Source: Pseudovirgaria hyperparasitica
Taxonomy: Eukaryota
Strand: one strand, 5' to 3'
Assembly (NCBI GenBank): GCA_010093815.1
Contig: ML996588.1
DNA length: 20,000 nucleotides
The translations under genes and the position numbers were made by a program. Under the pieces are notes generated by a model, which saw nothing but the letters and a program-made list of their open reading frames with translations, ran no database searches and had not been told where the DNA came from. Positions 2,774-20,000 of this stretch are shown piece by piece. Positions within the stretch are counted from its first letter, which is position 1. Every line of letters begins with the position of its first letter.

Positions 2774-3650
2774 GAGGCGAACTTTACTCCGTAGTATTTT
2801 ATCTACTAGATATATCTCTTATAGTCTTATTTAAGGCGTTTATATATTAAACTAGTATTATTATTAATAGCTAGAAGATATATATTATTAGTATATTCTA
2901 CTATCTCTATATATTATATCTCTTATAGAAGGTCTATAGTAAAGAAGAGAAAGAGAATTAGAGAGATAGTACTTCCTTATAGAATACTATATATTATCTT
3001 CTTATATTTACTTTAATATCTAGAGATATATATCTAGGTAATTCTTTTAATAAGGAAGGACTATATAAACTTTATAATCTATTTAGGTATATATCTCTTC
3101 TATAGATTATATATAAGTCTTATATAGTTTATCTTATTAAATACGCCGGCTATATTAAGGGAGAGTAATATTACTATATATTTCTACTTCTATATAGTCT
3201 AGATAACTTTAAGAATATATTAGATAGTAGTAATTAGAGAGCTTCTAGTCTTTATCTTCTAGTTTACTAGAAGAAGGTTATATTCTTATACTATAGTACT
3301 TATCTTCTTTACGATTATAGCTTTAAGTATCTTACTAAGATAGAAGAGAAGAGTAATTAGTCTCTATCCTTTTAGAGAATTAGAGTTCTTCTCTAGCTTT
3401 AGAAGTATAATAGTATAGATAGTCTAGAAGCTTTAGAGGTAGTATCTATTCTTAGTATATATCTAGAAGATAAGACTAATAAGTAGTAAGGTTATCTATA
3501 TAGTATATTTAAAGTATCTATTTAGTATTCTATCTAGTCTAGGCGCTTTATTATTTAGAAGTACTTTAATAGTATTAAGTATATCTTCTTCTATAATCTC
3601 TATAGAGATATTAACCGTATCTAGATATATATTATTATTAATATCTAATA
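2774..3650 (-). mobile_element. LINE A (Tad1-like non-LTR retrotransposon), reverse-transcriptase segment of ORF2, heavily RIPped
   Basis: Colinear with LINE B ~12915-13791 (e.g. ggcgaactttactccgt, aagaagag..agagatagtact, ttattaaa..ccggctatat). Broken at a 14-bp TSD and resumes at 17698. Confidence 0.88.
3637..3650. repeat. Left 14-bp target-site duplication of LINE B
   Basis: ATTAATATCTAATA (3637-3650) vs ATCAATATCTAATA (17698-17711): one CpA>TpA difference. Joining the two sides restores colinearity with LINE B ~13780-13830. Confidence 0.85.
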
Positions 3651-3654
3651 ATAA

Positions 3655-3856
3655 TGTAATGGATGTGACCAAGGTGTTACTATAATAGTAATTAGAATAT
3701 ATTATAATTTAACTTAGAGAGAGTAGGGGTAGCTCGTATGGGTTATAGCTTAAGTATAGTCTTAAGCGAGGTCACGTGATACCCCTATACTAGTCTCTAT
3801 CCGTCCCGGCTCCGTTATATAATACTAGAGATAAGGTAAAGCCGAAGTCCATAACA
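3655..3856 (-). repeat. 3' LTR of chromovirus #2 (202 bp)
   Basis: Termini TGTAATGGA...TCCATAACA (8/9 inverted repeat). Differs from 11249-11450 by 9 substitutions, all transitions. Confidence 0.95.
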
Positions 3857-3870
3857 TACCCTTATTCTCT
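3857..3870 (-). other. Polypurine tract of chromovirus #2
   Basis: Minus-strand AGAGAATAAGGGTA abutting the 3' LTR. Confidence 0.65.
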
Positions 3871-4044
3871 AGGGTTGTCTTAGGGACCGGCTTAGTATTT
3901 CATGTAATAATAACCGGCTCGGTTAGATCTTAGGTTTACGGTCTTTATATCGTACTATATAATAGTAGTAGGGCTATATATTACGTCCGGTAAGGTAGCC
4001 GTATCCCGTAGTCGCGTCTTAGTCGCGTAATAGAGGAGAGTTCC

Positions 4045-4362
4045 TCCATAACGGCGTCGTTAGTTATGTAATCGCATAGTAGTAGCACCTCGTGGTTACG
4101 TCCTAGCGGTCACGTGGTAGAGGTGGGTTCCTTATACTACGGCGTCGTTAGTCATGTGGTCGCACGGCGGTAGCATCTTATAGTCGCGTTCTAGCGGTCA
4201 CGTGGCGGAGGTAGGGTATCCTACGCACGAACCGCGCGTCTTATTTATTATTACCCATTTTAGGACCGGTTCTTCTCCGGGCTAGGGGTTAGGTAGTAGT
4301 AGTAGGGTAGCTTACGCACGACCCGCGTTTATTATTATTATTATCTATTTTAGGACCGGCTC
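4045..4362. repeat. Two pairs of diverged direct repeats upstream of the antisense gene
   Basis: acggcgtcgttag...ctagcggtcacgtgg..gaggt at 4051 and 4139 (88-bp period). tacgcacga..cgcg..ttattatt..attttaggaccgg at 4222 and 4313 (~91-bp period). Confidence 0.8.
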
Positions 4363-4495
4363 CACCCCGGCCCACACGATTTTCCCTAACGCGAGTATAT
4401 AGGTCCCACGTCTAGCGACTTTCTTCTTCTTTAACTACTATCACGCCTACTATCTCGATACCGCGTAGTGGCTACCACGATATTAGTAAACTCGT

Positions 4496-6000
4496 ATGCC
4501 ACCTCGTAGCTTCTATACCATTATTATAAGCGCGCTAGGCCTAAATAGGCCTATTATAGAAGCCGGCGCCGTCTTAGCGGTAGCTATAGGTACTAGGGGT
4601 TAAGACCCTAACGATCGACGCGCGCCTAGGCGCTAGGAACCGCCTAACCGCACCGTGAGTGGGTCCTATCCCTACGCCGTTCCTCATGCTAACTAGGTAG
4701 ATTATTTCTCCTACTACCTCCCGATAGGCTAAGCCTATTTACCGTATAGGGCTATATATTATAGAGGGTAACTCGTTAGAAGACGAGCGTACCGAGTCCG
4801 TGTACTTCGTATATCGTATATATATAAAGGCCCTAGAGAAGACTAGGGTGCTTAAGTACGTGCCGTCTCTACGCTATAGTAGCGCCTACTAATCTAGAGC
4901 GTAGCTATAAGCCTAGCCGCGGTACTAACTATATAAAGTGCCACACGTCGAAAGGGATCTACTTATAGAATACCGAGAAGCTCGCTATGTACCCGGCCCT
5001 ATATAAGGCGTAGAGCCGCCTCGAGAAGTTCGTGCACGAGTCGGTTAATAATAACTTTAGTCATATAATAGACCGTGGTAGTCGCGGCCTAGACCCGACT
5101 AAGCCTTCGTCCGGTAAGTAGCCGTGTATAAACTCTAAGTTCTACCGCCTATACGAGGACTATAAGTCTAACTTAGAGATTACGTATATCGCCCGCCGTA
5201 ACGCTAGCATCGTTAGTTAGGTCCCTATAACGCCTAATCGCGGTGCTATCACGGTAATTAAGACGCTATATCGTGGTAGTAGTAACCGTGGGTAGCTTAG
5301 TAGTATGATTCACTAGATGAATTAGTATATGTCGTATAACGAGGCCTAAATAGGCGAGTTACGCACTAACATCGGCGCCCTATAGGTATATACTTAGTTA
5401 GCCTAATTACTACTATCTTAACACGTGACGTAGGGTTCGATGTAGTAGGTCGCTTCCGGCCTAGCACGCCTAGCTAAGCCGCCGCCTCGCTAACTTCTTA
5501 CCTAGGCGGTTATAGAGGAGGAGGAGCCTCGTTTAAGTAGTGGTCGCCCACGCCGCCCTCGGCTAAGCGGCCCTAAGGAGTCGCCTACCCGCAGCCCGCG
5601 CTATCGCTATACCACCCCCCACCGGCTCCCTATTACTCCCCCCCCGTGGGAGGCCTTGCCGTTACCGCGCCGTCTCTATACCCCGCCCCGCCGCCGCGAC
5701 CCGTCCTAGCGCCGCTCTCGCTCGCCGGAGCGCCGTAGCCGGTCCCCCGACCGCCACGACCGGTCCCCTTACCGCCATAACTAGTCCCCCCGCCGCCGTA
5801 ACTATTTCTATAAGCGTCGCCGCCAATTCTATAACCGCCGGTGTTATACCGTCGAGGGTCGTCGCTTATCGCGTCGTTACTAGTCGCCGTCTCGCAGCCG
5901 CCATAGCCGCCCCGACGAGGTGTATAACTCCCCCTTACTACTAAGCTAGATTAATAGTCGCCCCCGCCGCTAGGAGCCGGCCTAGGGGAGGACTAGGTAA
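4496..6000 (+). pseudogene. Antisense, three-exon accessory gene relic (~470 codons): Zn(II)2Cys6-like cluster, coiled-coil-like middle, Arg/Ser/Pro-rich C-terminus
   Basis: ATG at 4496. Exons 4496-4654, 4701-4855 and 4905-~6000. Intron 4655-4700 is GTGAGT..GCTAAC..TAG and intron 4856-4904 is GTACGT..ACTAAT..TAG. Splicing yields one frame whose internal stops are only TAG/TAA. The spliced motif is Y-x2-Y-x11-Y-x7-Y-x2-C-x6-Y, where TAT/TAC are RIP products of TGT/TGC. The tail reads RRSRSPERRSRSPDRHDRSP. The 3' end is approximate. Confidence 0.72.
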
Positions 6001-6215
6001 CTAACCTTATAGTTAGGATTTGCGGTTAAGGACCGTACCGGCCCCGGCGCCGTATAGACCTAGGGTAGGGCTAGGAGAATAACCTTTTTATGTCTTAAGG
6101 AGGGTGTCGGTTTATTATTAGGTTACTTAGGTACTTAGCGTTTGGCGTTTAGTCTTTATAGAATCTCCACTCTTATATCGGGTTATTAGGGCCGCTATAG
6201 GCCCGTAATAGTAGA

Positions 6216-9200
6216 TTAATATCTTTATTTAGGGATGCGCTAAAGTCGTAGGCCGTTATGTAATCGCGTGCTACTATACCGGGCCTTAAACCTATCTAGT
6301 ACCTCGGTATCCTCTACGTCCTCGAGTAGTACCTATATTAGCTATAGCTAGCCCTTCTATTTTACGAGTACTTGCCTCTTATTTCGCCTACGTGCGTTTT
6401 TCGCCCGAAGGATATCCTTAACCTCGTATTTAGTAACGTCCTTATCGGCTTCGTTAAGTTCGAGTACCGGGCCCGGGCGAGTATCTAGCCGCTCCTAGCT
6501 AGGTAGAGGGTCCTCTACGGCGTGCTCGACTAGGCTAACATAGACCGTCTTATAAAGGTCCCTAGAGAGGTTAAGGGTTACTATTAGGGGGGTGGGTTAG
6601 GCGAGAACCCTATACTTAGTCTATAGCTAGTCGAGTTTCCGGCTCGGGCGATTAGTCTTTACGTTTCGGAGTAAGAACTATACTATATTACTAACCTTAA
6701 AGCGTTTAGCTAGGCGGCGTGACCGGTTAGCTAAGTCCTAGGAACGTTACTCGGCCTAGGTAATAGCCGCCTACGCTAGGGTAGTACCGTTATAGAGGTG
6801 CTTAAGGAAGTTTATAGCCCGGCCTTTCGCTAAGGTCGTAGAGGTATCGGGGAGTAGCCGTCGCGGTAATAGTTCGATATAGTATCTATTTAGAAGTAGG
6901 TTTGGCGCTATACCGGTTACTAATAAGGTGCGGTTATTTAGGGCGAGCTAGCATGCCGGTAGGCACTCCGGCTAATTAGTTTACTTGAAGGTTACTATAA
7001 CGCAAAGTACCGCCTAGACCTCCTAGTTTACTCGCTCTATGCTACCGTCGGTCTACAGGTGGTAGACCATAGAGAGGTCCTAGTGCACGTCTATTATAGA
7101 GTAAAGGGTTATCTAGAACTACCCTAGCCAGTCTAAGCCCTAGTCGGTAATAATAGACTATAGAAACCCCCGGAAACGCTACCATGTATTACGGAATCGC
7201 GCCATATAGTCCTTAGCCGCCATAGAGGTTATCGCCTCTAGCTAGATGAATTTTAAGAGCCAATCTATAATAATAAGTAGGTACCGGGGCTATAACGGGT
7301 CCGATTAGGGGAGGTCGGTTATAAAGTCTATAGAAATCTAGAACTAGAAATGGTCTAGTGTCGGAAGCGGCTAGAGGAGCCTAGGGGCCTTACGCCAATT
7401 TATATAAGCTCTATAGTAGTCGTAGTTCCGCACGAATCGCTAGATATTAGCCTATATACGCTTCTAGTAGTATTCCCGCCGGATAGCTACGTACGTCTCA
7501 TTCTTACTAGAGTAGCCCACGAGGGGGGAAGCGTGGGACCTCTAGATAATAGTTATTATAAGTGGTTCCTATTCGGGTACCTAGATAACTCCCTACCACG
7601 TGAGTGTCCCGTGTACCGATATAGCGTAGTCCGTGACCTATTTAGTCGTAAGCGCCTCTGGTAGAAAGAGGCGTACCCCACCTACTACGGCCGTATAGCG
7701 GACCTAATACGCCGGGATGGACTAAGCGGCTTAGTCCTAAAGCTCCTAGAGGTAGGGATCGGTAAAGATACTTTATCCCTATAGGAGGCGATCCTCCCCG
7801 GAGTAGGTGCTTATAGATACTATTTAGATAGCTTACGGGGCTATAAGCTACCCCTATAAGAGGGACTTCTTAGACGAGTCCTAGTTACGGCGGCTAAGGG
7901 CGTCCGGGCGAGCCGCCTAGGATCCCGGCCGGTATACTAGGTCGTAGTTAAAGAGTATAAGCTAGTTAGACTATCGCTACTACCGCGGGACGAGAAGGTA
8001 AGACTTAGTAAAGTACTCGAGGTTCTTATAGTCCGTATAGATCGTGAAAGGGCGGTAAACGCTCCGAAGCTCGGGTTCCCACGCCTAGAGGCACTAAACT
8101 ATAGTAAGGAGCTTCTTATCGTGGATTATATAGTTCTATTAGACGGCCGTAAGGGCCGCGGAGTGGTAGGCTATTAGGTGCTAAATGCCCCGAACCCTCT
8201 AGGATAGGTACCCGCCTATCGCGTGGCTAGAGTAATCCGCCTCGACCATTATATCGCGCGTCTCGTCCTAGGATTAGAGAATAGGTCCTATAATAAAAGT
8301 ATTCTTAAGCTTAGCAAACGCGTGGTCCTCGGTTAGGCCCTAGTAGAAGGCCGCCCCGGCCCTAGTAAGGGCGTAGAGCGGGGCCGCTACGGTGGAGAAG
8401 TCGGGAAGAAAGTTATAGTAGAAGTTTATAAATCTAATAAATCGCCGGACGCCCCGGACCGTAGTCGGGGGCTCCTAGTCCCGGATCGCGGCGATTTTCT
8501 CCGGGTCGGGGCGGATTAATTTACCGGCGGTAATAATGTACCCTAGGTACTAGACTTCCTTAGTAGCGAAGCGGCACTTAGTAAGGTTATAGTAAAGGTC
8601 CGCTTTAGTAAGGAGAGATAGGATAGTCTTTACGGCGGCCTAGTGGTCCTCTAGCGTGCCCGGGGTATAGATAAGGACATTATTAAGATACGCTATATAG
8701 GTTACCCCTAGGACCCCGCTTAGTACCCCGTTAATATAGCGCTAGAAGAAGGCCGGGGTACTAGAGAGACTAAACGGAAGCACGGTCTATTTAAAGAGGC
8801 CGAACTAGATACGGAAAGCCGTCTTATATTCGTCGCCGGCGGCCACCCGTAGTTTATAGAATGCCGCCTAAATATCGACCTTACTAAACCATAACGCGTT
8901 ACTAATAGTATATAGGGTTTCGCGTATTAGAGGAAGCGGGTATTAATCCTACTCCGTGATGCCGTTAAGGGCTCTATAGTTAATATATAGCCGCCATTTC
9001 CCTCCCGGCTTAGGGACGAGTAATACTAGCGCCCTAGCCGCGGAGGAGCTAGCCCGTATCTAACCCTTATCTATAAGATCCGTGAGCTGGCGGCGTAGCT
9101 CCACCAGCTACTCCCGAGATATAGTATAGAGGGGTCCCTAAGGGAGGTTTACCGGGGTCCCCGCCAGGGTGGACTTAATGCGGATATAGTAGTCGGTACT

Positions 9201-9960
9201 CCCCCGGTAGGGGGGCAGCGCCGACGCCTTCGCCTTATTAAAGAGATCGCGGTAGGCGTGTAGCTTCGATAGGAGCGGGCGCCTATCCTCCGTAAGCTCG
9301 GACGCGTCCTAGTTAGGTATCGGAGGTAGCGGGGGGAGCATAAGCTATAGAAGGCGGGTGACGTCGCGGATGCTGGTAGCGACCACCCGTCCACGGCGAT
9401 AAGCCGTCTCTAGAGCCTCTATAATATGACCCTTCTCGGCAAGCACCCGAATGCGCGTTAGGCGCATATAGGCGTTTACATCCTAGGCTACGAGGCCGTA
9501 GGCGCGGTAGAGTATGATCTCGTCTACCCGTATATTAATAACGGCGCCGGCCTAGTAGAGCCACGGGCTCCTAAGGATAAGGTCCCGGTCTAGCCCGGGC
9601 ACTATATAGGCGGAGAGGCGCTATCTCTATCCGGCGATGTCATACCATATAGTAACGACTTCCGTGATCTCCGGTCCCGACGCTCCGTTAGCGGTAAGAG
9701 CCACTTAATAACGTAGAACCAAGATACATAACTTAGCCACGTCCCTTGTAAGGGATAGGCTAACTACCACGAAATACTCGCACCCTATATCTACTAAGGC
9801 GTCTATATACTTTCTATCCTAGAGGAATAGCGATATAACGGGTGGCGGCCCGTCTATAACCTAAGCGGGTGCGCTATCCTCCGGGTCGGAGCCGTAATCT
9901 TAGTCGCCCGTGGCTTCGTTCCCTACCGAATGTTATAATATCCCCCGACCCGGGCTATAG
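6216..9960 (-). pseudogene. pol: pol relic: aspartic protease, RT, RNase H, integrase, chromodomain
   Basis: PR ALVDIGC (DTG) at ~9780-9800. RT YKTAFRI*FGLFK*TVLPFSL at ~8765-8828 and YLNN (YLDD) at 8679-8690. RNase H IHDKKLLTI at ~8100-8126. Integrase core at ~7000-7540. Chromodomain YEVKDILRAKNARRRNKRQVLVK*KG at ~6270-6430. pol is in the -1 frame relative to gag. Confidence 0.92.
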
Positions 9961-9967
9961 TAAGGGA

Positions 9968-11209
9968 CTATACTTCCCCCGCCTCGGAGTTAGAATTAGT
10001 ATCGTCCTAGGCTAGGGCCGCGACCTTAAGCACCCGTATATTAACGGCGTTTAGGTAGCCCCGTTATTAGTGGCTAGCCTAGCCGTACCGGGTATACACG
10101 CCCGCCGTGCGGCGCTCCTAGAATAAATCCTTTAGAATCCACGAAGGAGGCTCTTTCTTCTTAACCCCGTTCTTACTCTTCGCCGCCGGTAAGGTAGCTC
10201 GCTCCTTACCCTTTATCTTAACGGCCTTAATAGTAACCGCTAACATCGTCGTATTACCGTCCTTATCCTTACCCGGCTTACTTTAGGGCGCCGTGTTTTA
10301 CCTAGTACGGAGCCGGAATAACTCTATATCTATACTAATATCCCTAAGGCGGCCTACGGCGGCCTCGTATTGGTCCGGGAGGCCCCGGTTTAGGGCTACT
10401 ACCTAGGTCTTCTAGTTAAGGCCGTCCCGGAGCCGCATAAGCTTCTAGTCATCGGCCTAGTATATCCCCCTAGCCTCCTAGAGGGCGGTATAGAACTAGA
10501 CGAAGTAATCTATAAACGGCTCCTTAGCCTTTTATACGATTATATTCAGCCGTTAAAGGGCCCGCTCTTTAGTATATATATCTCTAAACTAGAACTTAAG
10601 GTAGTCTAGGAACGCGTGTGGGTCCTAGTTACTATTTAGCCCCCTAGTAGAATATACCGCGCTAACCCCCTTCTATACCTTAGGCGCTAGGTTAGCCTAG
10701 ATAAGGGCTATCTAGTCCCTATAGGTGCCGATGAACTCGGCGTCCCGGGTAATCTTATACCGTATTATAATGGACCACGTATAGAAGAGAGCCTTAGACC
10801 CGTTATACGGATCGCCGAGGGGGAGAGGCTTCCGTTTCATAGGCCGGTCGAGCGTAATATACGGGGCTAATAGTAGTAAAGTAGGGGCGCGTATAGGTAG
10901 GGCCGGGTCGGGCCCGTATAGGCGCTAAGGTGTAGCTAAGGAGGGGTCGGGCTAGGGTAGGGACGAATCCCTATAGGTTAACGTGGTAGGAGTACGGCTA
11001 TATACTTCGACCGTAACTAGGCGGGCGTTAATGCGCTGTAGCGCCGTATAGACGCTCTACTTAATATCGGATATACGAGACTCGCTTGCCGCTTAGGCGG
11101 CCGTAATAGACTTATATACGGCCCGTATTTCGTCTCGGAAGCTAAGGAAGGAGTTAGAGAGTTACCGCATTAGATTAGAGTCTTACGGGTTAAGACTATC
11201 TTATGCTAT
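9968..11209 (-). pseudogene. gag: gag relic with CCHC zinc knuckle
   Basis: 10096-10055 reads YTRYG*ASH**RGY, which un-RIPs to CTRCGQAGHQQRGC (C-x2-C-x4-H-x4-C). Same frame as the ATG at 11170 and a possible RIPped start (ATA) at 11209. Stop at 9970-9968. Confidence 0.82.
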
Positions 11210-11236
11210 AAGGCTACGTATAGGAAGAGGTTAATA

Positions 11237-11247
11237 AAGTTAAATTA
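11237..11247 (-). other. Primer-binding site, self-priming type
   Basis: Minus-strand TAATTTAACTT, 1 nt downstream of the 5' LTR, is the exact complement of minus-strand AAGTTAAATTA inside the LTR (11299-11309). No tRNA-type TGG start is evident. Confidence 0.65.
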
Positions 11248-11248
11248 A

Positions 11249-11450
11249 TATAATGGATGTGACCAAGATGTTACTATAATGGTAATTAGGATATATTATA
11301 ATTTAACTTAGAGAGAGTAGGGGTAGCTCGTATAGGTTATAGCTTAAGTATAGTCTTAAGCGAGGTCACGTAATACCCCTATACTAGTCTCTATCCGTCC
11401 CGGCTCCGTTATATAATGCTAGAGACAAGGCAAAGCCGAAGTCCATAACA
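11249..11450 (-). repeat. 5' LTR of chromovirus #2 (202 bp)
   Basis: Direct repeat of 3655-3856. The left terminus is RIPped (TG>TA) and the right terminus is ...ATAACA. Confidence 0.95.
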
Positions 11451-11468
11451 AATAATAATAATAATAAT
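11451..11468 (-). repeat. (AAT)n 3' tail of LINE B
   Basis: aataataataataataat, split from 3651-3654 by the gypsy insertion. Confidence 0.8.
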
Positions 11469-11799: not shown

Positions 11800-14700
11800 G
11801 GGTCCACTAGTACTAGAGGAGTAGTAGATATATAAGTATCTATCGGGAGACGTCCTTAGAGTACTTATTAAGCTATTATACGATATCTAAAGTCTTCGTA
11901 ACGTAGATAAGCTATTACCATTATATATAGAGGTTAGAGCATATAGCTAGATAGTAGCGTATTATACCTCTCCGGCCGTACGCCTTATACTATAGGGAGG
12001 TATTAGGAACGCCTCTCTTATAGATATAGTATAGAAGTCCTATAGCGCCCGTTCGGGCTTAGATAAGTATAGATACTTAGGCTTTCGTTAGCTCTTTATA
12101 TATCTATTTACTCGGTTCCTTCTATGGCCCTCGAATCTACTCTAGATATCTATTCTACTAGAAGGTCTATTAGACACGGAGTGCCTCTTTCTACTTATCT
12201 TAAGTCCACGACTATATATTTTTTATAAGTTCTTAAAGGCTCTACCGGTCTAGGAGAGCGTCCGGGTTATCTTGGACTTCTTATACTACTTAGCTAGAGT
12301 CGGCTTCTATTAAGTATCTATACCGTATTTAATTCTAGCCTATATATAGAAGTGCGTGGTAATATATGCTAATTTATACACGTAGCGCGGCGAAAGTATA
12401 TTCTACGTTTTCTATACGTTCCTATACTTATTATTTAGTGAAGTATACCACCCTCTATATCTAGTAGAAGTTATATATACTTATAACGTCTATCTCGCGT
12501 CGTAGTAGTACCGTGTTAGTAGCTTTATATATACCTAATATAAGACGGAGTATACGGTTCTATATAGATTCGAGCTTCATTCGCCTAGTCTATATAAGGG
12601 CTATATACTAGTACTCGTGTCTATACATGAAGGCGGGTCGTGCTATAGATATATATAGCTAGCGTGCCTTATCCCGGGCGGTTCTCTATATAGAGACTAT
12701 AATCTATCATATAGTAGCTTCTACCTAGAGGGCCCTAGAGACGGCGTATACTACTTATAGTCCCTATCTAAGCTTACTATCTAGTATAACTCCGAGCGCG
12801 CGTATACTTTATACTAGTAGTTTATTAAATGCGTCGATTCGGGGGCGTTATTCGCCTTCCCTAGTTACCTATTTCCCTTAACGATTAATAAAGTGCATAA
12901 GCTAGTATTTCTCCAGGGCGAACTTTACTCCGTGGTGTTTTACCCACTAGAGGCACCTCTTATAGTCCTATTCTAGTCGTCTATATGTTCGGTTAGTATT
13001 ATTATTAATAGCTAGGAGGTATATGTTATCGGCGTATCCGACTACCTCTATATACTTTATTCCTTAAAGAAGGTCTACCGTAAAGAAGAGGAATAGAATC
13101 GGAGAGATAGTACTCCCTTATAGAATGCCGTATACCGTCTCTTTATATTCGCTCTAGTACCTAGGGATATATATCTAAGTTATTCTTTCTATAAGGAATG
13201 ACTATATAAAGTATATAATCCATTCTAGTATTCGTCTTATCCGGAGGTTATAAATAAGTCTTATATAGTTTACCTTATTAAACGCTCCGGCTATATCGAG
13301 GGAGAGGAGCGATACTACCCGTCCCTATTTCTATACGGCCTAGACGACTTTAATAATATATTAGATAGCTATTATTAGGGAGCTATCTACCTTTACCTTC
13401 TAGTTTAGAGGGAGAAGATTATATTCCTATACTACGGTACTTATCTTCTTCGCTATCGTAGCCTCTAGTATCTTACCTAGGTAGAAGAGAAGGGCGATTA
13501 GTCTCTATCCCTTTAGGGAGTTAGGGCTCTTTTCTAGTTTCGGGAGTATAATAGTATAGGCGACTTAGAAGCTCTAGGGGTGGTACCCCTACGTGACGTA
13601 TACTTAGAATATATAAGTAATAAGCGGTAGGGTTACTTTTATAGTACTTTTTAGGCATCGATTTAGAATTCTATCTAGTTCGGGTACTTTATCATTTAGA
13701 AGTATCTTAATAATATTAAGTATATCCTCCTCCGTAACTTCTTTAGGGATATCTACCGCGTGTAGATATTTGGCGCCGTAAACGTCTAATAGGTCTACTA
13801 GTTCCGGGAGAGGGAACATGGCCTCCCGTAGGGCCTTAGTTTTCTTAAGGCTCGTGGAGTATATTCTCCCCTAATATATTAGGGGAGGTATAAGTGGCGG
13901 GGGTATCGGAGTATCTACGCCCTTAGCCTATTTCGCTATATACTATAGCCCTATTACGTATCGTGTCTATTAACTAGTAATTATACACTACTATTTACGC
14001 CTTTTATTATAGAGGACTTTATCGCGTTATCGTATCGCTTCCTTCTATTCTTTCTACGACTCGGGTATTCTCGTATAGTATACGCGTGTATATAGCCTTT
14101 AGGCGTCTTATCTACTTTCCTATACTTAAGGAATCCCCTTTACGTCTAGGGGCCGGTATATTCGGTATAGTATATGTTTATTTCTCGTATTCTAGTATAT
14201 TTATAGGAGTATCTATACGGCCTAGTCTATAGCTAGGTCGTTAGATATATCGACTATAGAGGGATCTAGAATCGCCGATTCCAGGTCCTTTAGGTACTTT
14301 TCCTAGTCGGTATCCTTCTATATCTATCGTCCCCGTTATTTATTCGGGGTATATACGTTTATTACGGTTTCTATATATTTATAGTTAGAATCCGTCTATA
14401 CCTGGCCTAGGCGGTAGTATTAGATCCGGTAACTAATGTACTCCGTAGCGAAGGTAAGGTTAAGCGTAGACCCGTCTTCGTCCTATTTATGTTTTTTCTA
14501 TATAACTTATTCTATAGGTATAAGTAGGTATAGAAAGTCGTGGTAGCGGGTACGTAGTTCCCTTACTCTAAGTTCTTCTCTAACTATGGCTAGGCCTCCC
14601 TACTATTAGTAGTAGAGGTTAAAGTCTCCTAGGAGGATGTATTACCCTAGTTCCGTAGTACCCTCGAGTATCTCGTCTAGTATAAGTATATATTATTAGT

Positions 14701-17697: not shown

Positions 17698-18852
17698 ATC
17701 AATATCTAATAGGTCTACTAGCTCTAGGGGGGGAAATATAACTTCTTAGAGAATCTCTATCTTTTTAGGGCTTATAGTATATATCCTTCTCTAGTATATT
17801 AGGGGAGGTATTAGTAGTAGTAGCATCGGTATATCTATACTCTTAGTCTACTTTACTATATACTATAGCTCTATAGCCTAGTATATATATTTATTAGTAA
17901 TTATATACTAGTATTTATATTATTTATTATAGAGGGTCCTATTATAAGATTAGATTATCTCTTTCTATTCCTTCTATACCTTAGTTATCTAGATATAGTA
18001 TATACGTATATATAGTCTCTAGGCTTCCCTTCTACTTTTATATATTTAAGGTATACCCCTTATATCTAGGGGCTTATATATTTAGTATAGTATATATTTA
18101 TCTCTTAAGTTTTAGAAGGCTTAAAGAAGGACTTATACGGCTCTATCTATAGCTAGACTATTAGATATATTAACTATAGAGAGATCTAGAATTACTAATT
18201 CTAGGTCCTCTCTATACTTCTTCTAGTTAGTATCTTTTTATAGCTATCTTCTCTATTATTTATTAGATATAGATATATCTATTATAGTCTCTATATATTT
18301 ATAGTTAGAGTCTATCTATATCTTACTAGAGTAGTAATATTATACTCTATAGCTTATATATTCTATAGTAAGAGTAAGGTTAAGTATAGATCCCTTCTCG
18401 TCCTTCTTATATTTCCTCTATATAATTTATCTAACTAGTATAAGAAGATATAGAAGGTTATAGTACCTTATATATAGTTCTCTTACTCTAAGCTCTTCTC
18501 TAATAACTATTAGGCCTCTCTACTATCTATAGTAGAGATTAAAATTACCTAGAAGAATATATTATTCTAGTTCTATAATACTCTTTAGTATAGTATCTAG
18601 TATAAGTAATTCTCTCTAGTTATAGATATTATAGATATAGAGAAACCCTATTTCTATCTAGAGATATAGTATTATCTAGAGATTATTCTATTCTATATAG
18701 GACTATTCTAAGAGTAGAATAGATTTATATATATAGAATAGAACTCTTCTATCTAGGTCTAGGGGATAGATAGTATAGTATTCTAGATATATTATTAGTT
18801 TATTAGTTTAGTAGTATTTATATAGCTTTTAGATAGCTATTATTATAGTATC
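17698..18852 (-). mobile_element. LINE A continued (linker and APE endonuclease part of ORF2), starting with the right TSD of LINE B
   Basis: Colinear with LINE B ~13778-14930 (aataggtctactag, attaggggaggtat, gatctagaat, gtaaggttaag). Homology stops at ~18850. Confidence 0.87.
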
Positions 18853-20000
18853 TATAAGAGTTGAAAGGGTATATATAAAAATAGATATATATAATACCCT
18901 TAGAAGGATAGGTAGTATAGAAGGTATCTTAAATAAATAAGACCAAGGGATATAATATATAGTATATAAAGTATATTTAATTAAAAAACTTAAGGAGACG
19001 ACTATCTACGGCTATAGAAAGGTCTATATATATATAATTTATATGTGTTATTATTAAGAATCGATAATATATATTAAATAGTATACTAAATACTAATAGT
19101 ATTCTATAAATATCTAAAATCATCTATAATAGTCCGTTTTAGTATACTAAGGACTAATATATTAACTAATATATTATCTCTATCTATATACTTCTAATTT
19201 CTACTTAATCTAATATAAGCTAGTACTTATAAGTTTTATATACATAATAACCTTATAATCTATTATATATATATATATAAGTTATATAGAATAAGAGTCT
19301 AGCTCTACTCTATTCTATTCTATAGAAGTACGTTCTCTAGTACTCTATAGAAGAGTTCTAGTTCTACTCTACTCTAGAGCTATTCTAGCTCTACTCTACT
19401 CTAGAGCTATTTTACCTCTACTCTACTCTATTAAAAGTTTTAAAAGGGTATATATAAAATAGATATATATAATACCCTTAGGAGGATAGGTAGTGTAGAA
19501 GGTATCTTGAATGAATAAGACCAAGGGACACAATATATAGTATATAAAGTATATTTAATTGAAAGGCTTAAAGAAACGACTATCTATGGCTATAGGAAGG
19601 TCTATATATACATAATTTACGTGCGTTATTATCAAGAATCGATAATATATATTAAATGGTATACTAAATACCAATAGTATTCTATAACTATCCGATTTAG
19701 TCCATTTTGGTACGCTAAGAGTTAATATATTAATTAATATATTACCTCTATCCATGTACTTCCGATTCCCACTTAATCTAATATAAGCTAGTACTAGCTT
19801 ATATTAATATAAGTCTCCTAGTCTATAGTCTCTAAGGAAGTTATAGAGTCTAGTCTAGTCTCTAGAGTAGAATATGTAAACTTAACCTCTACTATATCTA
19901 ATAAGTTTATATAAGGTATTTCCTTATTAGGAATAGCTTAATATTAGTAATCGATATTACTAATATTATCTACTTATATATATAAATACTCTATACTCTT
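18853..20000. repeat. Unclassified RIPped repeat element interrupting or truncating LINE A: ~360-bp direct repeats (18862-19227, 19441-19795) flanking a short tandem array
   Basis: The two copies align with one ~10-bp indel and mostly transition differences. The spacer at 19298-19430 holds tctagctctactctactctagagctat-type units. A 28-bp palindrome lies at 19779-19806. Confidence 0.6.

Follow-up and report, generated by a model that had tools for sequence, protein, structure and literature searches.

What lies in the roughly 2.3 kb between pol and the 3' long terminal repeat (LTR) of a decayed retrotransposon from the fungus Pseudovirgaria hyperparasitica? The window that we analysed is a 20,000-nt stretch of contig ML996588.1 (GCA_010093815.1), and all coordinates are positions in this window. 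It contains a Ty3/gypsy-type element on the minus strand, heavily altered by repeat-induced point mutation (RIP). The original prediction placed on the opposite strand of the pol-to-LTR spacer a spliced gene for a Zn2Cys6-like protein with an RS-rich tail. On balance, we lean towards reading the plus-strand segment from 4686 or 4701 to 5440 as a remnant, killed by RIP, of an antisense gene with introns that encoded a small Zn2Cys6-type protein, like the genes carried by intact relatives of the element. The main support for the zinc-cluster reading is the comparison with these relatives and not the window itself, in which the reading rests on architecture and one surviving cysteine.

The plus-strand gene model and its coding signal

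The predicted gene and two further motifs in the same region comprise the following features.

4496..4654, plus strand: proposed exon 1, starting at ATG 4496, 53 codons with 2 stops; its frame lacks support from the codon model
4655..4700, plus strand: intron-like segment 1, GTGAGT...GCTAAC...TAG, 46 nt; splicing predicted from the motif
4701..4855, plus strand: exon 2, 51 codons plus 2 nt, 1 stop; ends ...Y-R-I-Y-I-K-A-L-E-K-T-R-V-L, the putative first half of the cluster
4856..4904, plus strand: intron-like segment 2, GTACGT...ACTAAT...TAG, 49 nt, phase 2; located just before the C4-x2-C5-x6-C6 half
4905..5444, plus strand: first part of exon 3, the best-supported coding remnant; begins Y-KPSRGTN-Y-IK-C-HTSKGI-Y (codons 4906, 4930, 4939 and 4960)
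5114..5176, plus strand: further intron-like motif from the motif scan, GTAAGT...CTAAC..TAG, 63 nt, outside the proposed model
5445..5505, plus strand: further intron-like motif from the motif scan, GTAGGT...GCTAAC...CTAG, 61 nt, outside the proposed model
5506..6003, plus strand in the proposed model: GC-rich low-complexity stretch, the proposed RS-rich tail, 7 stops; R43, P25 and S20 of 166 codons

The two short intron-like segments are present as predicted, and their excision joins 159 + 155 + 1099 nt in frame from ATG 4496, with the expected peptide YRIYIKALEKTRVLN-YKPSRGTNYIKCHTSKGIY at the intron-2 junction. Another ATG, at 4686, is located inside intron-like segment 1 in the frame of exon 2, and provides an alternative start. 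Translation from this position would produce an N-terminal arm of about 42 residues, compared with 36 in one type of antisense protein from the relatives (the L039 type, see below). All internal stops of the model are TAG or TAA and thus of the RIP type, as had been claimed, but this property does not discriminate between frames: 1186 of the 1222 stops over six frames of the element are TAA or TAG, which makes the type of stop uninformative about the frame. Stop density was also rejected as a test for coding, because at about 0.08 it is no better in the true pol frame than in the wrong frames.

We used a codon-usage log-odds model trained solely on the gag and pol genes of the element, in which in-frame codons are scored against the other five frames. 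In leave-one-block-out cross-validation, the correct frame ranked first in 13 of 14 windows of 100 codons. The model prefers the plus-strand frame of exon 2 over 4451-4850 and the plus-strand frame of exon 3 over 4851-5400. The change of frame coincides with the 49-nt segment, the length of which gives exactly the one-base shift required. Between 4901 and 5200 the score is 11.9 per 100 codons, versus a null six-frame maximum of -3.0 +/- 3.6 (P 0.002), and over 4905-5444 the exon-3 frame scores 7.8 (P 0.004; dinucleotide shuffles in both cases). The GC content by codon position in 4905-5444 (0.39/0.39/0.56) is highest at the third position, as it is in pol (0.50/0.37/0.59). In exon 2 the proposed frame ranks first of the six, with a score of 2.8 against -4.7 for the runner-up.

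The two ends of the predicted gene do not share this signal. In exon 1, for which ATG 4496 had been proposed as the start, the score of the predicted frame is -6.1, and the top score, 1.1, belongs to another frame (P 0.24). The predicted frame of the tail (5506-6003) scores -13.7 in a model that reflects gag-pol composition and is therefore biased against low-complexity sequence; a minus-strand frame ranks highest there (0.3, P 0.03). GC contents by codon position in the proposed tail frame differ little (0.61/0.63/0.70). The frame contains 14 RS/SR dipeptides, Pfam identifies no RNA-binding domain in it, and the relatives that were read carry acidic tails, not RS tails; in L037 and L038 the sequence after the cluster is acidic. 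A 21-nt tandem repeat (3.4 copies) occupies 5731-5802 within this GC-rich region. Other family members differ from this copy near the repeat through gaps of 114 and 147 nt, both of them divisible by three. We have doubts about exon 1 and the RS-rich tail as parts of the gene, and the most defensible model consists of exon 2 (possibly from ATG 4686), intron 2 at 4856-4904, and exon 3 to about 5440.

The minus-strand preference in the tail could also mean that the spacer codes on the sense strand, either for a C-terminal extension of pol or for a third sense open reading frame (ORF), for instance in the Gly/Arg-rich sequence of 5500-5950. The minus-strand frames of the tail read Gly/Arg-rich, and the other frames of the GC-rich repeat are equally low in complexity. 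The tail signal does not extend beyond low-complexity sequence. Over 4450-5400, all minus-strand frames score below the plus-strand frames with the exception of one mirror frame, and no sense-strand match of the spacer to any relative was found. The 11 closest intact pols stop 7-36 residues past the aligned chromodomain region and cover about 61% of a query that includes the tail. We rejected the Gly/Arg-rich minus-strand frame as an extension of pol because intact pols end soon after the chromodomain, and we consider sense-strand coding in the spacer very improbable.

A weightier alternative is that the spacer is a non-coding, long 3' untranslated region with repeats, in which the apparent gene is a by-product of RIP. 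RIP enriches TA, so that TAG, GTA, CTAA and Tyr codons become common, and pseudo-introns and pseudo-clusters may arise by chance. Tyr indeed makes up 6-9% of the six-frame residues, the pentamers CTAAC and CTAAT are plentiful (28-70 per strand), and the six-frame translation of the window (39,996 residues) contains 15 cases of a loose zinc-cluster pattern in which each ligand is either Tyr or Cys. A stop density that does not separate frames, the 27 stops of the model, missing codon-model support for exon 1 and the tail, the absence of a homolog, and some close relatives that are nearly spacerless also fit with this explanation. In contrast, the six-frame translation of the GC-richer element (15,594 residues) contains the loose pattern once, and 'virtual introns' of 40-80 nt placed at random create it over the junction in 104 of 120,000 cases. 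Among 117 motif-defined combinations of intron and frame in the whole window, the pattern is found only at 4856 (two 3' variants) and at one site in the AT-rich flank.

The intron-like motifs are also concentrated on one strand. The scan of the whole window yielded 10 plus-strand and 6 minus-strand starts, and four distinct sites (4655, 4856, 5114 and 5445) lie within 850 nt of the plus strand (4655-5505), whereas the remainder of the element has two on each strand. A codon model that was trained independently of the spacer beats the shuffles and switches frame at intron 2, and the position, strand and intron placement are those of the genes in intact relatives. A non-coding spacer is therefore unlikely in our view, although it keeps appreciable weight.

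GAL4-type zinc clusters have the pattern C-x2-C-x6-C-x5-12-C-x2-C-x6-8-C. Downstream of intron 2, the frame may be read as a former C-x7-C-x2-C-x6-C, provided that Tyr was Cys. Upstream of the intron, Y-R-I-Y-IKALEK-T-RVL corresponds to C-x2-C-x6, with Thr at the site of the third cysteine, followed by three codons and a phase-2 splice site. With Tyr read as former Cys, five of the six positions and the intron match the canonical layout. Intron-like segment 2 precedes the Y-x2-C-x6-Y half by eight codons, in phase 2. The intron in the related locus L017 (read from the DNA) is in phase 2 as well, three codons after Cys3 and seven before Cys4.

Other copies of the family provide a direct view of one of these codons. 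Contigs of two DNA runs from one sample were aligned to 3600-7500 at 80% likeness, and more than 1000 contig pieces matched per run. All 30 bins of this region are covered, and the depth over most of the spacer is comparable to that of pol, with lower values at 3993-4254 and the lowest at 5434-5957. The coverage and depth show that the spacer regularly accompanies a high-copy family and is no one-off captured fragment, a possibility that had been named as a potential refutation of the gene. The copies differ almost exclusively by RIP transitions (483 of the 510 changed places tallied by kind in one run). At position 4940 most other copies have A instead of G, which turns the TGC codon at 4939-4941 into TAC. 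The change from Cys to Tyr by RIP is thus seen directly at codon 4939 of the motif. Of the six ligand codons, this is the one that fell among the 40 of about 549 variable places examined; the proposal that Tyr codons are former Cys codons holds at this one position.

Antisense genes with zinc-cluster patterns in related elements

A search of metagenome contigs with an alignment of 11 intact pols yielded 79 gypsy loci. Their spacers from pol to the 3' LTR vary in length, with about 50-70 nt in L035 and L004 and up to 0.8-1.6 kb elsewhere. Loci L068 and L060 have two consecutive antisense ORFs in common, which read ...C-E-R-C-A-D-F-G-I-L-C-I-P-Q-N-L-P and, after a short gap, ...C-A-P-C-A-K-A-K-A-A-C, and so form a canonical cluster in two pieces. 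The gap in L068 contains a GTAAGT...TAG intron as read from the translation; the motif scan flagged none in this locus. A blind pattern scan found full canonical clusters in L016, L037, L038, L039, L042 and L076, always on the strand opposite to pol.

For a count we considered the 44 loci in which the sequence continues downstream of the pol match for 700 nt or more. An antisense C-x2-C-x6-C followed within 12-160 nt by C-x2-C-x6-8-C is present in 14 of them. Such a pair was found on the sense strand in none of the 44 loci, and within the pol region, on either strand, in none of the 79. Locus L016 also has a cluster pair, in a contig with a layout that suggests circular permutation. An additional 'pair' upstream in L017 was discarded as a low-complexity run of Cys and Tyr.

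Introns are predicted from motifs in many of these genes. In 9 of the 15 gene-bearing loci, namely L007, L017 and seven of the L068 group, a short predicted intron splits the loop that joins Cys3 to Cys4 (L037 and L076 were outside the intron scan). At least three intron-like segments are found in L007 (46, 49 and 72 nt), and in L038 an intron-like segment stops 1 nt before Cys1. The intronless antisense ORFs are 134-223 codons long, and most of them begin with a basic N-terminus and finish in an acidic region, with the cluster and then a helix-prone part in between. The antisense sequences of L017 (4625-5257) and L068 (9467-10018) have long helix-prone arms rich in Glu, Lys and Arg on both sides of the cluster, with poly-Glu ends, and the proteins are far more charged than the L039 type.

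Long antisense ORFs in the spacers of relatives carry no weight on their own, because GC-rich spacers hold ORFs of 100-200 codons in all frames, and matches between close pairs of loci occur in several frames and on both strands. With respect to position, the plus-strand signal of the window (4450-5400) is flanked by the LTR, which reaches to 3856, and by pol, which ends at about 6250, as in the class found in the relatives.

In the proteins of these relatives, Zn_clus of Pfam scores 17.0-17.5 bits for L039 and 14.6 bits for L037, compared with a cut-off of 21. At E <= 0.1, it ranks first among the families in 18 of the 46 aligned L039-type proteins (best 1.7e-4), and the 16 Pfam families listed at this threshold include no apparent second large transcription-factor domain. 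A profile of L039, L016 and L042 matched 212 proteins at E <= 0.001. Among the 120 matches listed, 34 have names in NCBI, all from Bipolaris, Pyrenophora, Exserohilum, Stemphylium or Alternaria; two of the species concerned were checked and belong to the Pleosporales. Several of the named matches come from one strain, and many are called 'Zn(2)-C6 fungal-type domain-containing protein' in UniRef. One family member of 225 aa from Pyrenophora tritici-repentis (P0107) is named 'Chromo domain containing protein'. This name is probably annotation spill-over from a neighbouring pol, hinting that the gene adjoins a chromodomain in that genome. The L038-type protein matched 238 proteins, and none of the 120 listed bears a name. 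The AlphaFold2 model obtained for an L039-type protein has a mean pLDDT of 68.6, with values of 54-73 for the cluster and of 87-99 for a long helix of residues 72-131. A Foldseek search of the PDB with this model gave no match.

The subfamilies are barely connected by sequence. A hidden Markov model (HMM) of the L039 type detects L042 (3.8e-6) and no other related locus. The likeness of the antisense genes, as far as sequence comparison reaches, is one of place, strand, size and cysteine pattern, and common descent is not demonstrated. The assignment to the same class rests on architecture, since the subfamilies share nothing detectable beyond the cluster.

Several observations weigh against the window segment being such a zinc-cluster gene. 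In the window itself, one of the six ligand codons is truly Cys (TGC 4939-4941) and five are Tyr. If the spacing is canonical, the third ligand position holds Thr, and its codon (ACT 4842-4844) cannot arise from TGY by RIP (C to T, G to A). The alternative third ligand, Tyr 4906, demands a non-canonical C-x2-C-x11-C; the longer first loop that had been predicted on this basis cannot be confirmed from one copy. The sequence as it stands does not have the GAL4-type spacing of six Cys. The 470 codons of the full model contain 27 in-frame stops (21 TAG and 6 TAA), and the coding signal of exon 2 is weak (P 0.07).

Homology searches point in the same direction. No Pfam family matches any of the unspliced spacer frames at E <= 0.1, and the Zn_clus gathering score of 21 bits is not reached there. 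For the first 200 codons of exon 3, with X in place of stops, phmmer found a single match among 1.84 billion representatives: P0003, a 774-aa tandem-repeat protein that was matched ten times by query residues 91-127 and was rejected as spurious. When the six frames of 3857-6300 were compared with the 79 related loci by tblastn, 13 matches were obtained, with a best E of 1.3. An HMM from 120 L039-type proteins found nothing in the six frames, the spliced model or its Tyr-to-Cys versions, and BLASTP with the other antisense subfamilies produced only Gly/Arg low-complexity matches at 5500-5960. The negative comparisons with the relatives are weak evidence, because the subfamilies do not detect one another either.

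The relatives themselves add further points of this kind. Their own Pfam matches are all below the gathering score, and a profile search of PDB sequences gave coiled-coil noise and no zinc-cluster structure. The alignment of the L039 and L038 types by hhalign comprises the cluster alone (probability 0.4%, E 0.16). Among close relatives of the window element, L004 has about 67 nt and L035 about 50 nt between pol and LTR, and the spacer of L001 has no antisense cluster.

The phylogeny of pol places the window among elements with and without the gene. The FastTree analysis took in the window, 10 database pols and those 34 of the 79 loci in which a single ORF spans 2400 nt or more of the match; the L068 group and L035 are not in the tree. 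The window groups with P0004-P0006 (local support 99) within a clade of 18 rows (support 100) that includes the antisense-gene-bearing L007 as well as L001, L003, L004, L005, L006 and L019, for which the scans that covered them found no cluster pair. The antisense-gene trait requires at least four changes on the tree. The 10 database pols, the nearest relatives P0004-P0006 among them, entered as protein only.

The same observations could be explained by a genuine antisense accessory gene that encoded an orphan protein without a zinc cluster, with a coincidental pattern of Tyr codons. Its position would compare with that of brtn in Boty-like elements or of the extra antisense ORFs in plant Ty3/gypsy elements (both discussed below). 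The plus-strand coding signal and the intron motifs are independent of the cluster reading and fit equally with such a gene, as do the missing third Cys and the lack of a match to Zn_clus or any antisense subfamily. Antisense genes of unknown function at this position have precedent in the descriptions given in PMC8365987 and PMC7264820. On the other hand, the surviving Cys falls exactly in C-x2-C-x6-C-type spacing just past the intron, as in the relatives, and five of the six positions fit as former Cys, with the change to Tyr evident at codon 4939. All antisense genes identified in the relatives carry the cluster, but they were found by the cluster pattern, and the other 30 loci were not searched for a cluster-less gene. 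We consider an orphan protein quite unlikely.

The remnant of a Zn2Cys6-type gene thus is the reading that we retain for 4686/4701-5440. The core of the predicted antisense, spliced gene is supported by the genes in the relatives and by the frame switch at intron 2, but no homolog of the window sequence was found; Pfam, HMM and TBLASTN searches gave no significant match for the spacer. The antisense clusters between pol and LTR in the relatives came from pattern scans. With its 27 stops and with five of the six presumed Cys codons reading Tyr, the copy in the window is dead, and no protein can be expressed from its gene.

Anatomy of the element and its surroundings

The gene model lies within a single LTR retrotransposon that spans 3652-11450, flanked by direct repeats of 205 nt (3652-3856 and 11246-11450, 96% alike). 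A RIP signature extends over all 20 kb, with TA/AT ratios of 1.4-2.6 and (CA+TG)/(AC+GT) ratios of 0.03-0.38 in every 1-kb block. The features of the element outside the gene model are as follows.

3655..3856, minus strand: 3' LTR, with TG...CA ends; the first TG of the other copy has become TA by RIP
3857..3872, minus strand: polypurine-tract-like run (AGAGAATAAGGG on the sense strand), adjoining the 3' LTR; role suggested by position
4051..4222, no strand assigned: 88-nt tandem repeat, 1.9 copies (TRF score 218), with GGTCACGTG in each unit, upstream of the putative antisense gene
6252..9857, minus strand: pol, protease to chromodomain in one frame with many RIP stops, from Pfam and alignment to intact pols
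9865..10945, minus strand: putative gag, in the frame starting at 11245, assigned by position and motif
11249..11450, minus strand: 5' LTR, from the direct repeat and directly read ends

Read by eye, the LTRs run from 3655 to 3856 and from 11249 to 11450; they start with TGTAATGG at 3655 and TATAATGG at 11249, and end with CCATAACA at 3856 and 11450. The sequence AATAA at 3650-3654 and 11451-11455 is likely a 5-nt target-site duplication, a weak signal given the AT-rich low-complexity DNA around it.

The minus-strand frame from 11243 contains, with stops translated as X, the Pfam domains RVT_1 (8.2e-24), RT_RNaseH (8.1e-16), RT_RNaseH_2 (2.1e-15) and Integrase_H2C2 (0.005). RVT_1, RT_RNaseH and Integrase_H2C2 lie within this single frame, and the remaining five frames have no Pfam match at E <= 0.1. 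From 9857 down to 6252, the pol of the window is 43-51% identical over about 1050-1215 residues to intact pols from public assemblies, among them P0004, P0006, P0008 and P0011, and several of these carry PF00385. A chromodomain-like stretch at 6431-6288 was read from this alignment and has no Pfam match of its own at E <= 0.1. The window pol is predicted to end near 6150-6250. Since the intact pols end shortly past the aligned region, the spacer between pol and the 3' LTR is about 2.3-2.4 kb long.

In gag, a knuckle-like Y-x2-Y-x4-H-x4-Y at 10099-10055 on the minus strand, assigned from position and spacing, appears to have had its three Cys turned to Tyr by RIP, and so offers a second example of this change besides codon 4939. 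Judged by its LTRs, gag, the order of protease, reverse transcriptase, RNase H and integrase, and the C-terminal chromodomain, the element is a Ty3/gypsy chromovirus (Metaviridae). The LTR pair, the Pfam matches and the pol alignment thus confirm the predicted minus-strand, RIP-degraded chromovirus with its spacer.

The motif GGTCACGTG occurs at 3770-3778, 4108-4116, 4196-4204 and 11364-11372 (as GGTCACGTA in the RIPped 5' LTR), that is, once per LTR and once per 88-nt unit, which amounts to 4 matches versus 0.04 expected. With its CACGTG core, the motif could be a cis element common to the LTRs and the repeat, and the 88-nt repeat might serve as a promoter or enhancer. A scan of the spacer for bacterial-type promoters and terminators, a method that is not applicable to a fungus, remained at chance level.

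The gypsy copy sits within a mosaic of older repeats. RIP-degraded pairs that are 71-91% alike surround it, at 2776-3075 and 12917-13216, at 13785-14339 and 17705-18259, and at 18878-19227 and 19456-19795. No tRNA genes were found in the window.

A possible self-encoded regulator

We tentatively propose, as a possibility rather than a probability, that several lineages of fungal chromoviruses, including one family with multiple copies in Pleosporales and the family in the window, encode their own small, dimeric, Zn2Cys6-type DNA-binding factor in an antisense, intron-bearing gene between pol and the 3' LTR. Such a factor would act on the LTR or spacer repeats of the element itself, for example the GGTCACGTG units, and would drive or restrain the element, as a counterpart of the antisense regulators of complex retroviruses. 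The same tentative proposal includes that the class has been overlooked because annotations list its copies as scattered hypothetical zinc-cluster proteins.

In live elements, the antisense gene would be transcribed from its own promoter in the spacer or the 3' LTR region, convergent with pol. Short spliceosomal introns could outlast retrotransposition, because they would be in the wrong orientation for splicing out of the genomic RNA. The predicted product of the class is a protein of about 190-225 aa, with a Zn2Cys6-type six-cysteine cluster followed by a coiled coil. It may dimerise by the coiled coil and bind DNA, most plausibly the LTR or spacer repeats of its own element, and could thereby tune transcription of the element.

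The relatives resemble GAL4-type factors (PF00172) in having a C-x2-C-x6-C-x8-11-C-x2-C-x6-C cluster, then a long helix and mostly an acidic tail. The order of cluster, coiled coil and acidic region is reminiscent of GAL4. They differ in their size of about 200 aa, in Pfam scores below the gathering score, and in the lack of a zinc-cluster match in the PDB or Foldseek searches; the window differs further in its non-canonical, mostly Tyr pattern. The HBZ protein of HTLV-1 is made from a spliced antisense transcript from the 3' LTR side and is a dimeric bZIP factor that acts on the transcription of its own element. The comparison of the class with HBZ would be one of functional analogy only, HBZ being a bZIP protein of a vertebrate retrovirus with no relation in sequence or fold.

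Antisense accessory genes are known in LTR retrotransposons, and their function is almost wholly obscure. One of these genes, brtn, is said to be located between pol and the 3' LTR. It is the antisense gene of Boty-like Ty3/gypsy elements in Botrytis cinerea (Zhao et al. 2011, Virology 417:248, as cited in PMC8365987, PMC7264820, PMC4227169 and PMC5987419), and the closest precedent in print for the class. According to these citing papers, it shares with the window a fungal gypsy element with an extra antisense gene beside gag-pol. BRTN itself may be such a protein; among the matches listed in the searches with window exon 3, the L039 type and the L038 type, no named protein is from Botrytis. 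In plant Ty3/gypsy elements, additional antisense ORFs (aORF-3R) between pol and the 3' LTR have been suggested to regulate retrotransposition (PMC7264820). They have orientation and place in common with the class described here, but belong to plants and are described in that source without mention of a zinc cluster, whereas the present class is fungal and has short spliceosomal introns and a Zn2Cys6-type pattern.

The suspicion that no family of this kind had been characterised holds in part. Antisense extra genes in Ty3/gypsy elements are already in print, as brtn shows in the citing papers, and what our literature searches did not turn up is the zinc-cluster version. Full-text searches, which leave out most subscription journals, yielded no account of a gypsy element with a zinc-cluster gene, and term look-ups in three papers on fungal transposons (PMC4112212, PMC4210507 and PMC3248453) returned nothing relevant.

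For the window itself the result is more modest, as its copy is dead. If the proposal is true for the class, self-regulation of a fungal transposon would become directly testable, by means of a 200-aa protein and a binding site in its own LTR. It would also provide a natural case of introns that are carried through retrotransposition on the antisense strand, and would explain the multi-copy 'hypothetical Zn(2)-C6 proteins' that inflate transcription-factor counts in the genomes of Pleosporales.

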